From Raillietiella orientalis (Eukaryota): a stretch of 64,000 nucleotides of DNA. Below, piece by piece: positions 1 through 19,029 of this stretch. The notes beneath the pieces are model-generated. The model was not told the DNA's origin and did no database searches. It was given only the letters and a program-made list of their open reading frames with translations. The position numbers and the translations under genes are program-made. Each line of letters begins with the position of its first letter. Position 1 is the stretch's first letter. The DNA lies in the NCBI GenBank assembly GCA_036172245.1, contig JAYWIR010000020.1, positions 2,046,001-2,110,000 of the forward strand, read 5' to 3'.

Positions 1-87
1 TTCTCAGCATTATACAGAGGTGCTCATATCCTGACAAAGATACCAAGAGGGATGAAATCTGGCTCAGAGCACACCAGAGGTAGGGGG

Positions 88-89
<2 letters not shown>

Positions 90-123
<34 letters not shown>
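90..123. repeat. (GA)n microsatellite preceded by a G-run
   Basis: Directly visible (ga)n tract. Confidence 0.9.
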
Positions 124-127
<4 letters not shown>

Positions 128-995
128 ACGAAAACAGTCACTTGTTATCCTTCTGCATAGCGGAGAAACGCAGCTGAGATCTTCCCAGTATGCGAAGCAA
201 GAAATGAGGAACGAGGTTTCCAATGGAGTCTGTAAAATTTTAATCTTGCATCTTCGATTGCATAAATCAGTAACGGTTTGTTCACACCGATAAAGCAGGC
301 ACTTTTTGTGGCAGTTCTGCGCCGCTGGTGCGCATTCAGTTAAAGAACAGACGGTTTGTTTTTGTTTTTTCTGTCCCCCACCCACCCCATCTAAAGAACA
401 ACTTCAAAAGCAAGTGGTGAGCAGTGAAAACAACTCGCATTGTGTGCTGCGAAGGTTCCGTCATGCAGAGTTTTCGTCCCACAAACATCGGAATGAAAGC
501 CAACAGAAACCGGAAATGAGCAAGCACCCCCGGAAAAAGAAAACGAAAAGGTGTATCCTTCCTCAGGACTCGGTTCGTTTGCAATCACGGACTCTCAGAT
601 CACCGGGGTGGTGAAAGGATTGTGTGTTCCTCCTCTCCGTCCCGGAAACGGTGCCGTAAGCGCGGAAAAACTTTAGCACGCAAACTGCAACGAAAAAGGA
701 CGGGGAAACTGCAAGTTGCTGAATGGAGGGGGCAGAGAGACGCGGTGACCCCCGCAAGCAGCCACGGATTCTTGATGATGATTGAAATCAAATAGCAACA
801 AACGTATCGAACTCGAAGATGCACACGCCCTTTTGTGTTCGTCTCCCCGTCCCTGGAACCTGAGGTGTACTCGTGCTGGCATCGTTCCTGATGAAACAAA
901 TGGACTCGAAAGTTGAGATCCGTATCTTCTCTTCGACGAAACTGAGGCTGGAAACAATTTCTGGAAAGTATCACGGTGCGGCGCCGCGAACGGAA

Positions 996-1028
<33 letters not shown>

Positions 1029-1408
1029 CAGAAGCCATCACTCAGAGTAACGACTTGGCGAAGAGGCGCACATTCCTCCTGATCCGGAAGGTCGTGACGA
1101 GCAGCCTGGAAAAAGGGAGAGCGGGCGCGGAACGCACGCGCGCCATCGGATTGAGCATTCGGACCCGTTTTTCGGCGGGACGGCTCCGCCGCCCGTGCTG
1201 AGAGTGAGGTGGGCACTTTGGAAACGCGAAGGAAGGGAGGAGAGGGGGAGGGAACAGAATGGTTAATACAGAGGATTTTCAAGAGATGGCAGGAAACCGC
1301 AGACTGACGAGCTCGTGCTGCTCACTCCTCTCATCAGGCACGCACCGCTCGGATAGAATCGAAAGCCTTAAACAGAAACAAAGTGTCAAGACGTCAAAGA
1401 TCTTTGCA

Positions 1409-1491
1409 GCATCACCATCACCACCACCATGATCATCGTCATCACCGCAACCATCACCATCACCATCGCCATCATCATCACCGTCATCATC
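1409..1491. repeat. Degenerate (CAT/CAC)n trinucleotide repeat
   Basis: Reads as poly-His on + and Asp/Gly on -, with no supporting gene context. Confidence 0.75.
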
Positions 1492-2049
1492 GGTAGCATT
1501 ACTGCTCTTACCCAGGAACTCCGGATATAGGACTCCGGGTATCATTACTGAAGATTAAAGCATGAACAGCGGACATCCTTTATGAGAATGCTGTTGAGCG
1601 GAAAATAAGCCTAATACGTTGCCGGACTATTGAGATCCAGTGATTCACACCAAGAAATCCGGAGAATCGATGATGATCTTGAGAAAATTCTGTTGGGTGA
1701 TCGTCACGTTGAGGGTGAGCGTATCCCAAGGACGGGTGTGTGTTGCCACCTCTTCGAGTTCGGATAACGCAGGAATGAGCTGAGAATCCTCCCCCCCCCC
1801 TCTCCTTCCTCAACTTGACCGAGGAGGTTTCCGTGATCCCTGCTTTCGCCGGCTTTCGAGGACGTCCTGTCCTTCACGACAGGACCTTCTTCCGTCTCCC
1901 CCTGGTGAAACCAGCGTGGTATCAACTTTCACCCCGAGGTTGCAGCTGCGAGCAGCTGTTGGACTGCCGGAACGTGGGGTCGCGGGAGGAGACCATGAGA
2001 CGTTCCTACTGGATCGGTAGGCAAGAACGTGCGAGCTCACCCAGAGCGT

Positions 2050-2420
2050 GGAAGGAGAGGAAAGAACCCCCACCACCTCCGGATGATCGAGAAGGGAAGC
2101 GTGGTCTCCATGGCAGCCTAGAAGAGAGCCACCACTACAGAGCCCACCGTACAAATTCGACTACTCGAAAGGGGGATGCACATCTCATGCACATGCAGCT
2201 TGGTCGAAATGCACATCCTCCCGATACCAGGAGCGACCGAAGTCTCCTCAATGGAGTTCTGGGAGAGGACGTCCGTTCGTGGCAATCGCAGCAGCCTCGA
2301 GCCACGAAACATCTTCATCCCGGTCATCTTTCCGGACCCCATCGCTTCCGCCTTCATCGAAGTGCAGAGACTTCCCGTGTAGCAGCGGCGAACGCGTGCT
2401 TCGAGTACAGCGGTCAGGGA
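2050..2420 (-). mobile_element. Possible decayed Ty3/Gypsy integrase core fragment
   Basis: The minus frame, broken by stops, reads SLHFD..VSWLEAAAIA..VHFDQ..PFE*SNLYGGLC..LLG..DHPEVVG. This parallels the integrase pattern HID..SKWLEA..HSDQG..FES.LF..LC.LLG...YHPQSNG. Motif recognition only. Confidence 0.3.
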
Positions 2421-2614
2421 GAGCAGCGCGAAGTGGAAATCTACCATCGCGTGGATGTCGGCACATGAGACAAGGAGCGCAGGATGTTCAGACAAGACAA
2501 ACAGACACAGCAGACAGACGGTCAGTAGTCATCGGCCCTGGTTCCACGGTCCAGCCGCGAGAAGAACGTAGGGCAACACCGCCGTGCGGCGTAGGTTAGA
2601 GTTCCTCCCGCGAG

Positions 2615-2710
2615 ATGACGCTGGTTGGCCTACATGCATTCGGGTGAGGCGCTGGTAGCAGTTCAAACAGGATGCTTCCATGAGCGGCCGGGATTGGGAG
2701 TCGACCTTCC
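2615..2710 (+). mobile_element. Decayed LTR-retrotransposon RNase H N-terminal fragment
   Basis: LAYMHSGEALVAVQT, then after frameshifts DASMSG..LG. Resembles the LAY.D....VQTDAS..GLG motif. Confidence 0.4.
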
Positions 2711-2889
2711 GAGATCCTTCAAGCAAACATCATCATCGCCGTCTTCGTCGTCGTCGTCGGCGGCGGCGGCGGCACAGATGCCCACTGGACGAAAAGACAA
2801 AGAGAATATTGAAAGTAGTTGTGTAGTGTTTACCATGTACGGCTAGAAGAGGAAGCAGCTGTCCACACCCTCACCCCAGTTTTCCTTAA

Positions 2890-3005
2890 CGGTGGCTCGG
2901 AAAGCGCTCGAGTCGGTTGCAGGCGGCGGAATGCGCGAGGCTGGAGTCGATTGTTACCCGGGAAACGGTTTCAACCCGAAGAAGTGCAAATCCTTTTGGG
3001 TTCTT
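2890..3005 (+). mobile_element. Possible decayed reverse-transcriptase fragment
   Basis: ALESV..MREAGVD....FNPKKCKSF resembles L..V...LREAGL.LNP.KC.F. Confidence 0.3.
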
Positions 3006-4059
3006 CTGCCTTCGCCACTTTTCTTCCAGTTTCCCTTTTTTCTTTTCTTTTCTTTTCAGGTTTTTTTTTTTTTTTTCTGTTTTACCAAGTGCCGAAGAAC
3101 CGTTAGATTCCTTAGGGGGAAGCTCACGAAGATCCTTTAAAGACCTCAGCAACGCAACCGCCAACACGGGCTCCTGGAGTTTCGACTTCGGAAGCTGCTG
3201 GAACACACGGACTCTCCGTCCGTCTTCCCGGTCCTCCTGCTCTCCAGCTAGAGCGACGCGCTGCTTCGTGCTTTGCTTTTTCCCTCAGCGGGCAGCACGC
3301 GCACCGCGCGCGCCTGCGGAGAGGGACGCAAGGCAGGAAGACATCCCGAGATCCCGGCTCTTCGTCACTCACTAAGAGTTGGCTCTGGAGGCATGCAGGG
3401 AGGAGCTGCCTACCTTGCCAAGCCCTTTCCCCGGCACGCACCGGCTGGCCCCTCGTCCACACCCGCCTCGGAGGAGCGGGAGCGCACGCGCCTGTCGATC
3501 GCTCCTGTTGGCGCGGCGAGAAGTGGACTAGAGGTCACTTGTTGTCAGAGGTCGCGGGTGATCCTCACGGGTGGGCGCGCCGAGTGCCACGCACGAGCTC
3601 CTCCCAGCCCGTTTCAGCTGCCTCTCGAAGGCGGAGTCAGGCGCCCGGACCGCTCCGAGACAGCAGGCGACTCTCGATGGAATGGAGACCCGCGGCGTGG
3701 AACGCCTCTCGTAGCTCCCTTCCCCTTCCGTCCATGGTCTTTTGTTCTCCTTGACCTCAAGAGTGTCGAAAACAGGCAGCAGACATCCTGAAAAAGGGGG
3801 CACCGCGGAAGATTCCTAGTCCGACTTGAAGTCTCGGCCTTCGCGCGATAGGGAGAATGGAGCTCCAGCTCCAGCTTAGAAGATTTGCACGGATGACCAG
3901 ATAGGTGCTAGGTGCCATCGCGCCTACTCCTAAGACAGATCGAAGGCCGACTGTGAAGGGAGGTTAGCGACTCTGGTACAGCACAGCCACCAGGTCCTGG
4001 AAGGACACATTTTTTCCACTTCGGTCGTCGCGACAAGGAAGAACACTCGCTGGTTTCTC

Positions 4060-4200
4060 CACAGGCTGCCGTGCCCTGCCGCAGCAGAGAGCTCGACGCC
4101 TCCGCGCTTTCCCTGACGCGACAGCAGCGTTCGACCACGCTGCTGCGGCACTGGGGGGTTCCCGTGCACCTCAGCACGGACAGAGTGTGGCCTCAGGCTG
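4060..4200 (+). mobile_element. Possible decayed LTR integrase fragment
   Basis: LLRHWGVPVHLSTD resembles the integrase motif F.RWGVP..L.TD.GPQ. Confidence 0.35.
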
Positions 4201-5209
4201 CTCCACAGCGGACAGCGAGTGAAAAATCCCTTCCCGCTCACGCTTGTGAATTGAGCGAATCTGACCTGACTCCGCGCGACGTGATCGTGTCGCGGAAAGA
4301 GCACGGCGCGAGACAGGAACTCCGTTCCCATGACTGCCTCCTCCTTGAAGATGACAAGATCACACCAAGGAGATGAGGGTGGGCATTCTGCAGAAGACCC
4401 CAGAACGGTGGCACTTTCCCTCCGCATGAACAGTTATAAATTTATTTTTATTTTATTTTTTTCATTTCTTATTTTGGTACCCCTTCTCCTCTTTCCCCGA
4501 GGAGATCCTTACTGACAAGTGAGCTGGCTTCACCCATTGTCAGCACCCAGAATTCCTTGGACTTGGACAAACACTACTGTCCTACGATGCAGTTCTTTTT
4601 TTTTTCCTATCTCATTTCATTGTATTTTTTTTTGTATGTTGTCAGAGGTCGCAATGAGGGTCTCAGAGTAACCGGGTGCCAGTCCGTTTGGTATTGTGCA
4701 ACTAACGGCTCGTCTTGGCCTTGGTAACAGCCCGTGTAACCATTCGACAGGTCCAGCGCGGAGCACAAGTCGGCCCGAGAGGCAGCACGTCAAACGGAAA
4801 GGTAGGGGATGCATAATGTTGGCTCATTACGGCCCGCACGCGGCTGCCTCGTCGGACCGCTGGGCGTGGCTCCGCCAAGACCGCACGATGCAGCAGCCCA
4901 CCACCGCTCGAGTCGGAGCGTTTCCAAGTCGACGCCAAACTCCGTGCACGGCGTGTGTCGCGTAGGGGACGGCTCCGGGAGACAGGCACGCGAGCGGGCG
5001 GTGAAGCCCCGCGGGAGCAGCACATCTACGTACCAAGGGAAGTATTTTGGCGCTCCCGGCTTGCTCGGTTTGGATAGAGAGATGGCAGCAGCATTCGCCC
5101 CACAAGTCGGGAAGGCAGCGGTCGACTCCGTAGAGGTAATGGGGAACCTGCCCCGCTCGAAAATCGAGGAGTATCCCATCCAGCGAACCCTGGTTTGTAC
5201 TTACACTCG

Positions 5210-5447
5210 ACTCGCTTACTTTGATAAAATCAGAAATTTTCATTTTATCATCCCTTATAAATTTCTGTTCTAGTAAAACAACTTCTTCATAGTATTTAGC
5301 CATTCGACCATCTACTATTTTCTTCGTCACTTCTTCAGGTTTATTTACGCTTTTTACCTGTTCTTCAATTATAGAGCGTTCATTGTTCAACTTTGCTTGA
5401 TCTAAGTCATCTGTAGAGAGAGAGCTTCCGGGCTTCATAGCAACTAC
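5210..5447 (-). pseudogene. tsf: Fragment of bacterial elongation factor Ts, Wolbachia-like (nuclear endosymbiont insertion)
   Basis: Minus frame reads VVAMKP..LSTDDLDQAKLNNERSIIEEQVKSVNKPEEVTKKIVDGRMAKYYEEVVLLEQKFIRDDKMKISDFIK. This is the EF-Ts C-terminal region and is near-identical to Wolbachia EF-Ts as I recall it. It is an AT-rich island in GC-rich flanks, is truncated at both ends, and has compensating indels near KPGSSLS. Confidence 0.85.
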
Positions 5448-5529
5448 GGGTTCGCGGGTGATCAACGTTGGTGGATGGGAAAGCAGCGTGGACTTTGCCG
5501 GCGCAGAGTAGGAAGTTCTAGCCCGTGGC

Positions 5530-5549
5530 GTTGTTGTTGTTGTTGTTGT
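5530..5549. repeat. (TTG)n microsatellite abutting the right inverted repeat
   Basis: gttgttgttgttgttgttgt. Confidence 0.85.
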
Positions 5550-8500
5550 AGGTGCAAACCAGGGTTCGTTGGATGGGATGCTCCTCTTCTCGATTTTCGA
5601 GCGGGGCAGGTTCCCCATTACCGAATCGCAATCTGCAAGCCAAATAGTTGACAAAGATGCAGAGTGAGAGAAGATTCTGTTAAACTTATTAGGCTCCTGT
5701 TTGGGCACGGAGAACCAGTGAACAAAAACGGCGTGGATGCTGTGAACCTCCACGATCAGTTTCAGAATGCTTTGCAAAACAGCTTGACATTGAAGTGTGC
5801 AAATTGTGGATTTCCAAAGTGTTCTTGCGCGATTATCTAACCGTTTCAGTGGTTTTGTGGAATATCTTTCCTGATGACGAAGCACAAGCCTTCCCGGAGC
5901 AGAGCTTGGAGGAAAAAGGGAATCTAAATTCTGAAACACTTTGTATCTAAGAGCACAAGCAAAGAAAGTGGATCAAAAGACTTCCGAGAGCAGGTGCTTG
6001 CGCTTCTAGATGTGAGCTTTTCTTTGAAATACCATGATCCAACGATGGGAAGAGTTAATTTAGGAGTGGTTTTTGAATTCAAAGGAGACTTGAAGAATAA
6101 GTTCACCAGTGGAGGACCGTAAAAATGAGGGGGAGCAACGTAGTACGAAGCCGCCTTTTCTTTAAGGCCATTGCCGATTGGATTCATCGGATTTGGGGCT
6201 CGTGTTATCCTTATTTCTTGCTTTCCTTTTATAACTTGCTGGCGTATTTCTCAGTAGTTGCAAAAGGTGAAACGATGTTTATTTGTGGCAACCTTTGAGT
6301 CTCGTCCGATAGCTCAGGCACAGGAAAAATGCATTGCTCCAAGAAACAGCCGCAGTTCCAGAAACAATTGAATTCCCGATCATTCCGAGACTTCTGAAAG
6401 GCCTGGAGGCTAGAAATTCAGTGAGCAACTTACGGAAATGAAACAGAGATATCAAAGACGAAAACATCGAAAAGACTGGTGGATACGTCCATTCAACCTT
6501 AAGCTCTGAAGCTGTTAACAATCTTTCACATCCTTCCAGCAGCGCCCTCATGACCTGCTCCAAGTCCAACACTTTTGTTTCAGAACCAAGTTTTTATTGC
6601 TTACGTTTCAGAAATGATTCTCTGGGAAAGAAATTGGATTTGCGCAGTTCCAACCTTTGGAAGCCGAGGTGCATTCCATTTGGCAACATTTTTATATGCG
6701 TTTGTTTACACCATAAGTACAAGATATACAATAAAGTACACTTCGCAATGATAGCTTTCAGAGTTTTTCCAGTTCTTCTTGAATACAACATAAGTCATCT
6801 TGGGTTAAGCATGACTCATCTATGAAAATCGAGGTTCTTTTCAGAGGGGGAAACAGGGAGCGGATCCCTTACAGAGGTCCTTCTGGGAAGCAAATGACGC
6901 CTGGATCCTTCCGAGAGATGTCTCCGGAGATAATAAGGAAGAATTTTCCTTCGGGGTTCTCTACCAAGCGCGAGAGGAACGGACTCCTTCCTCTGGAGCC
7001 TTCCTGGGTTCATAGAGAGACCTCGAAGGGACCACCCTTCTTACAGATATAAGAATAGCGCCTTCTTACGGAAGTTTCTAAGATACATAAACCGAATAAA
7101 AGTCTTAAATGTCCCTTTCCAAGTTTAAGTAACTATGGAGATTTAAAGCTCGGATTTGAAGGACAGCAATTTCTGCAACACAGCGACAGGCACCATGTGG
7201 ATACTAACTATATTTGCAGTTTTAAGAATAATTTGTTGGAAGCACAGTTCAGATCGCCTCTGAAAAAAGTTTCAATCATTCTTGACATCGACAGGCCAAG
7301 TGCTTGCGAAATATTTAGAAAAGCCATCCGGAGGAACGTTCCCTTTTCCATTGGAATAAATGGATTTATGCAAATTTGAATTTTCAGAAACGACCATACT
7401 ATGAACATCGAAAGCGGAACACGACAGTGGCCTTCTGGAATAGTACACCTTGAGTGGAATCCAGAAAGAAAATTAAGCAAGAAAATGTATCCCGCACAAA
7501 TTTTTTATTTTTGCATTGGTTTTATTAAACAAGAACTAGATAGCATAAAAGGCTTTCTTACTTCAGGGAACATGTATAAGGACCAATGTTTCAAATGAAC
7601 GAATAAATCAGAGAAGGAGTGTGAATTTAATAACTCAGGATCGCTTTTATATATACATTCCGCCCTTTTGTGAGTTTGGATCTCACTGATGACTGCAAAT
7701 TTGGAGTCAACCATTAATTCATAACATTAAGTCAACCATTTAACATTCATTAAGCAGTTCCTTAAAAGAAATTAAAATTTCCAGGAAGAGCAGAATGGAA
7801 GAACGAAATCAACCCAACCTCACTGGATGAGTAATAGCACTATAGGAAATGAATGTCAAGTGTACAGACTATGAAAATCTACAGCCAACAAAAAGTGAGA
7901 TTACTACACTGTGAGTGCTCTGTTCGTAAAGAATAAGAGTGATGAAAGTGCTCCGGAGGAAGTAGTCACATGATCCGTCACAACAAAAATATAATCCTAC
8001 AATTAAGTTTTCTATCTGAAAGGATAGACTAGTTTCCTCTTTTCCTCTACAAAAGAATGTGAACCATAATTGGGATTGACTAGATTTGATCGTTTTCGAT
8101 CATTTTGAAGTCAAGAAATTCATCATTAGTGCGATGACCATCGCAGATCAAATGCAAATCAAAACAAAATCAGAATGAATGGAACAGTACATGATGCTGT
8201 ACATTTATTCAAATAATCAGGACTTGGAGTGAGGTGAACCGTGGCCTATTCTGAAAACATATTTACATTGGTGACGTACCTTATTTCACAATATTTATTG
8301 TGAAGTTATTGTGCTGCCGTCATGTCATTCATCAGTTGAATATAGGGAATGTTAAATGCTGTCACACATTACTCTAAAGTGTTGATCAAAATGCTAACGA
8401 GATGAAACACTACGTCCAATTTTTTCACTTCCTAAAAGCTCCACGAAAATTATTTCCGCATGGAAAAACCGCAAAACTACAAATTTGATATTTCTGATAT

Positions 8501-18956: not shown

Positions 18957-19029
18957 TGGAGGCGCCGGGTATCGATCCCGGTACCTCTCGCATGCTAAGC
19001 GAGCGCTCTACCATCTGAGCTACGCCCCC
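18957..19029 (-). tRNA. tRNA-Ala (anticodon AGC)
   Basis: GGGGGCGTAGCTCAGATGGTAGAGCGCTCGCTTAGCATGCGAGAGGTACCGGGATCGATACCCGGCGCCTCCA, 73 nt. Cloverleaf intact, no encoded CCA, and a Pol III T5 terminator a few nt downstream (18947-18951). Confidence 0.97.

Follow-up and report, generated by a model that had tools for sequence, protein, structure and literature searches.

A supergroup-F Wolbachia tsf fragment in arthropod nuclear DNA and the anatomy of its junctions

The tsf fragment in this report lies on the minus strand at positions 5201 to 5448 of the window, the whole 64,000-nt stretch of DNA that was analyzed, and is in all likelihood a genuine nuclear insert of Wolbachia DNA (a nuwt), assigned by its sequence to supergroup F. 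That it is non-functional seems to us just as probable, and it is likely that both hold together. The insert is an ordinary case of the well-known transfer of DNA from symbiont to host, and the anatomy of its junctions is its sole notable feature: the junction is well resolved, which makes the mechanism of capture testable. The fragment would also date a relatively recent supergroup-F germline infection of an arthropod host.

Identity and limits of the tsf fragment

Minus-strand translation of 5205-5447 gives the EF-Ts peptide quoted in the preliminary description, which had matched it to Wolbachia rather than to the animal mitochondrial protein TSFM; our searches bear this out. The fragment (248 bp, 82 codons, 35% GC) matches the Pfam EF_TS family (E = 1.6e-21, profile positions 114-195 of 204) and over its 248 nt is 92-94% identical by blastn to tsf in all six F-clade genomes compared. 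Wolbachia sequence departs from the window right outside both ends, giving sharp limits; the earlier extent of 5210 to 5447, or about 75 codons, was nearly right but slightly short. Of 224 candidate stretches in a scan of GTDB contigs, 61 were confirmed. The best 28 of these 61 loci are Wolbachia (61-94% amino acid identity), including two MAGs named just “Rickettsiales bacterium” that are placed within the Wolbachia clade, and the remaining 33 reach at most 53%. Best matches to eukaryotic TSFM or to bacteria outside the Rickettsiales, which had been named as evidence against the Wolbachia reading, were not seen. All four matches in a PDB search are named EF-Ts (including 1TFE/1AIP and 1EFU) and are presumably bacterial in origin. 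With 94% DNA identity to Wolbachia and PDB matches to EF-Ts, the fragment does not fit animal mitochondrial TSFM. No second host locus matching the EF-Ts peptide was found in the assembly search.

As noted before, the fragment is truncated, here at both ends. Its product is homologous to a helical segment of bacterial EF-Ts (residues 103-174 of the 1AIP chain; see also 1TFE and 1EFU), whereas the full bacterial protein extends beyond the fragment on both sides, by residues 1-190, which include the TDFV motif, and by 17 residues at the C-terminal end. We take the TDFV motif, subdomain N, and the N-terminal domain to have a role in functional EF-Ts. The fragment encodes residues 191-272 of 289 only and is therefore unable to act as EF-Ts.

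Placement of the donor

A tsf tree had been proposed for assigning a supergroup, and in two such trees the fragment falls in supergroup F. In a midpoint-rooted tree of the 248-nt piece with 28 Wolbachia rows, from which the 33 confirmed non-Wolbachia rows were excluded, it is nested in the F clade with support of 98/96; a second tree, of 27 rows and 1.2 kb, also places it there (SH-aLRT 99). Its companions in the clade are the Mansonella ozzardi strain and seven others, including louse-, cicada-, and bed-bug-associated strains, and these other strains we take to be supergroup F as well. The M. ozzardi strain is given as supergroup F in one report (PMC12693587). On the trees, the donor is placed as a supergroup-F Wolbachia; the assignment comes from one 248-nt piece, and a 1.1-kb copy on contig C11, described below, is also in F and may derive from a different strain. 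Constraining the fragment and the C11 copy to one clade was not rejected (p-AU 0.86), a value of no weight because the free search it was set against was suboptimal.

Host context

The contig is 3.45 Mb long in an assembly of 210 Mb, and the window carries exons of NHLRC2-like, acyltransferase, zf-DNL, FANCI, trabid, and LETM1 genes. The closest intron-containing host gene is the NHLRC2-like one, of which an exon at 9799-10107 matches 6GC1 (E = 1.3e-14) about 4.4 kb from the insert, in agreement with the 4 kb of the preliminary description. Among the candidates scored against six genomes, the window yielded no further Wolbachia DNA, nor did 4300-6100 yield any extra shard when five F genomes were searched to E 1, and a mosaic nuwt at this locus was rejected on the latter result. 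The eukaryotic genes, the long contig, and the otherwise Wolbachia-free window embed the fragment in host nuclear DNA.

Arthropod or nematode had been the earlier expectation for the host. Domains of arthropod cuticle proteins are matched at 14 places among 16 candidates, while nematode cuticle collagen gave no match among three candidates in a search without a positive control; by its genes, the host is assigned to the arthropods. In a quick tree of 63 trabid rows, the host sits on a long branch (0.9) without reliable class placement, and even the closest relative found for its trabid OTU protein has an identity of only about 60%.

Several other features of the surroundings may be recorded. 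The GC content steps sharply near the nuwt from about 48-59% over 1-5200 to about 28-43% over 7000-63000. A fasciclin gene (FAS1, TGFBI-like) with long GC-rich introns lies on the minus strand 4.7-17 kb to the left of the window; the search did not locate its 5′ end, which may reach towards the nuwt, and tick fasciclin homologues align to its minus-strand exons, not to the open frame at 4827-5972 discussed below. At 6830-7020 the window holds a host repeat, about 190 nt long and present in many copies (72-87% identity among the 40 scored of 1,203 candidates), and it recurs near the C11 copy, about 1.3 kb away from the tsf portion. A tRNA-Ala(AGC) gene is found on the minus strand at 18957-19029.

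Changes in the fragment

Against the consensus of seven F-clade strains, the fragment has 10 substitutions and two indels. Five of the substitutions also occur in one F strain or another. Of the rest, three are synonymous and not seen in the seven strains, and one of these is probably the state of the donor, because the C11 copy shares it; the other two of the 10 are non-synonymous and absent in all 28 Wolbachia rows. The lesions at 5413-5428 (minus strand, from the alignment to the F consensus) are an inserted G, a +2 slip in a CT microsatellite, and an Ile-to-Thr change at 5413, none of which occurs in any of the 28 rows. Small compensating indels had been described here, and alignment agrees: the two-indel version (+1, +2) has 10 differences, compared to 12 for the best single 3-nt insertion. 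The pair is net +3, and the reading frame is therefore restored; the fragment has no stops and no net frameshift.

Change after insertion is estimated at about 2-5 substitutions of 245 plus the indel pair, or about 1-2%, and because it is so small, selection on the fragment is untestable. Of the decaying integration proposed in the preliminary description, the integration is well supported but the decay is minimal. Judged by these differences, decay is slight and the insert is young relative to the C11 copy.

Other tsf-derived DNA in the genome

The nuwt on contig C11 (about 2151517-2152627) is 1.1 kb long, belongs to supergroup F, is 81% identical, and has many indels; from the gene order, we take it to contain the 3′ end of tsf, pyrH, and the start of frr. 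Its branch length is 0.18, compared to 0.033 for the 5201-5448 fragment, and it is the older of the two. A third piece, at C9:3546727-3546800, is a 74-nt scrap of the 5′ half of tsf (83%) that opens an AT-rich island, some 600 nt long, within DNA of 60-70% GC; scrap and island are possibly a mosaic nuwt. Intact tsf was not found in searches of the assembly, from which symbiont contigs may have been filtered. Three scraps of differing age suggest repeated transfer during a long association.

Supergroup-F nuwts are known in filariae and in Dictyocaulus viviparus, according to three reports (PMC12693587, PMC4046930, PMC3849323). The arthropod and nematode nuwts described there are likewise short, truncated Wolbachia DNA with an F donor and several ages per genome, and a few hundred base pairs is the low end of their size range. 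The present insert differs in having no stop or net frameshift, in the templated-looking host copies at its junctions, and in its arthropod host.

Junctions of the insert

The junctions go unmentioned in the preliminary description. On the left, the sequence at 5552-5622 recurs as a 66-nt inverted copy (5135-5200) that directly adjoins the fragment and has three mismatches and one 5-nt gap. The terminal bases of the nuwt on this side (5201-5205, minus strand) are a candidate priming microhomology, with four of five matching the template at 5547-5551, and Wolbachia's own continuation differs here. On the right, a split direct copy of arm sequence (5448-5480, plus strand) starts at the last right-end base of the nuwt and consists of 8 nt, a 16-nt spacer, and 9 nt. 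Its 17 bases match, and when the spacer was shuffled, one of 3,000 shuffles reached at least 17 matching bases anywhere in it. A GC-rich host stretch ending in a (GTT)n microsatellite follows at 5481-5546, with no significant match to Wolbachia in five F genomes searched to E 1, and then the right arm, the presumed original template, which spans 5547-5622 on the plus strand in the arm alignment.

The arms are separated by 341 nt and fold into a stable stem (z = -10). Their sequence is single-copy, in that an exact 24-mer occurs once forward and once in reverse genome-wide, and DNA searches likewise find two copies. The arms differ at 3 of 66 positions, about 2% per arm, which is of the same order as the 2-5 of 245 in the nuwt. 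No target-site duplication is visible outside them. Farther to the left, a 16-nt exact direct repeat is present at 3540-3563 and 4637-4652, and adjoining it, a 12-nt stretch at 3552 matches 5452-5463 within the junction spacer.

Capture of the insert

We lean, with modest confidence, towards a templated origin of the arms. In the germline, a double-strand break in non-coding arthropod DNA would have taken up 245 bp of supergroup-F tsf. One end would have received short copies of host sequence from close by (5448-5480) through loop-out synthesis. The other 3′ end would then have folded back on 5547-5551 via a 4-nt microhomology, primed an inverted copy of about 70 nt of host DNA (5135-5200), and been joined to the left flank. 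From then on the insert would have been non-functional DNA under drift, in which few changes accumulated. The geometry of the repeats is observed directly, and from it we infer synthesis-dependent end joining as the repair. A Drosophila study (PMC2943611) describes templated repeats at the junction, both direct and inverted, as the signature of SD-MMEJ, and alt-EJ has also been proposed for numt capture in another report (PMC7407515). With SD-MMEJ, or polymerase theta-mediated end joining, as described there, the nuwt shares snap-back inverted and loop-out direct repeats that include the junction, and multi-round complex insertions. It differs from the Drosophila cases in its longer copy (66 nt), its more distant template, and the foreign DNA in the middle; its junctions lie inside direct or inverted repeats of nearby sequence, but the Drosophila screen (PMC2943611) was limited to repeats no more than 20 bp from the junction, and the arms here are 341 nt apart. 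The nuwt junction resembles SD-MMEJ in its working, with SD-MMEJ itself as a putative mechanism here. The mismatched fifth base of the microhomology is a point against templated repair. A partial search of the literature on nuwt junction mechanism returned no paper on templated nuwt junctions.

The main rival to templated repair is that the inverted repeat predates the insert. In that case, the repeat would have formed a hairpin in host DNA, its loop 98 nt long, that broke at the base of an arm and was patched with Wolbachia DNA, leaving a nuwt that is dead all the same. The stable stem and the position of the insert exactly at the end of one arm suit this account, which leaves the split direct copy at the opposite junction unexplained and would not lead one to expect arms as little diverged as the nuwt has decayed; we think it unlikely, though worth serious consideration. 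Inverted repeats bracketing an insert also recall a MITE-like element that had picked up a piece of tsf between its 70-nt terminal inverted repeats, but with just two arm copies genome-wide and no visible target-site duplication outside the arms, such an element is extremely improbable. Nor do we give much credence to an assembly chimera in which reads of a live Wolbachia were joined to those of the host. A chimera would show close agreement with living strains, as is seen here (94%; a termite-gut contig agrees at 213 of 222 bases); against it, the fragment has indels and substitutions present in no Wolbachia row, the arms have diverged from one another, unlike a fold-back artefact in a read, and intact tsf was not found in the assembly, with the reservation on filtering given above. 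A chimera is very improbable.

The open frame across the insert

Returning to the nuwt as captured non-functional DNA, three features are unpredicted by neutrality: the fragment is stop-free, it keeps its frame, and the open frame around it is unusually long. A frame scan gives a run of 381 codons from stop to stop (4827-5972, minus strand), with the tsf fragment in frame, and this is the longest stop-free run in 84 kb. The 175 upstream codons stayed stop-free in 62 of 20,000 shuffles and the 124 downstream codons in 937 of 20,000. Equally open runs make up 1.0% and 4.0% of the local background of 57,923 codon positions, none of which has both. Openness of this order is unlikely at a single locus and plausible once where nuwts are many. 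An acceptor-like pyrimidine tract with AG is present near 5947, and there is an in-frame ATG near 5618.

These features could be taken to mean that the insert is translated, within a chimeric exon or a de novo gene that joins host S/T/P-rich sequence in frame to the EF-Ts helical segment, with the indel pair kept by selection. If so, the gene would be chimeric and very young, with about 263 codons from the ATG near 5618. The flanks argue otherwise. Pfam has no match in 12 read-through frames, an Atlas search of the frame recognized EF_TS alone, and among 1.84 billion representatives the flanks found two weak matches, neither credible; both were rejected as long repeat proteins whose scores sum eight stretches, and in a pairwise comparison of one of them the best single stretch had an E of 6e-5. 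Moreover, both private substitutions alter residues, with outcomes lacking in all 28 Wolbachia rows, two indels restore the frame about one time in three, and a donor-like motif at 5621 could close the exon ahead of the insert. A chimeric gene is improbable, and the long open frame around the insert is probably due to chance.

A search of sequencing runs found no host RNA and had a single match, to a metatranscriptome from termite gut that shared 0.05 of the words. Its contig covers 5201-5422 only and has Wolbachia sequence at its loose ends; as a live Wolbachia contig that covers the tsf part only, it was rejected as evidence on host, habitat, or expression. On the plus strand, 153 candidates for a decayed frame at 5451-6200 gave no match at E 1 or better and none in Pfam; the protein-like read-through frame there (5451-6120) has a CxxC-CxC cluster and three stops before 5972 and runs antisense, in register, to the minus-strand frame.
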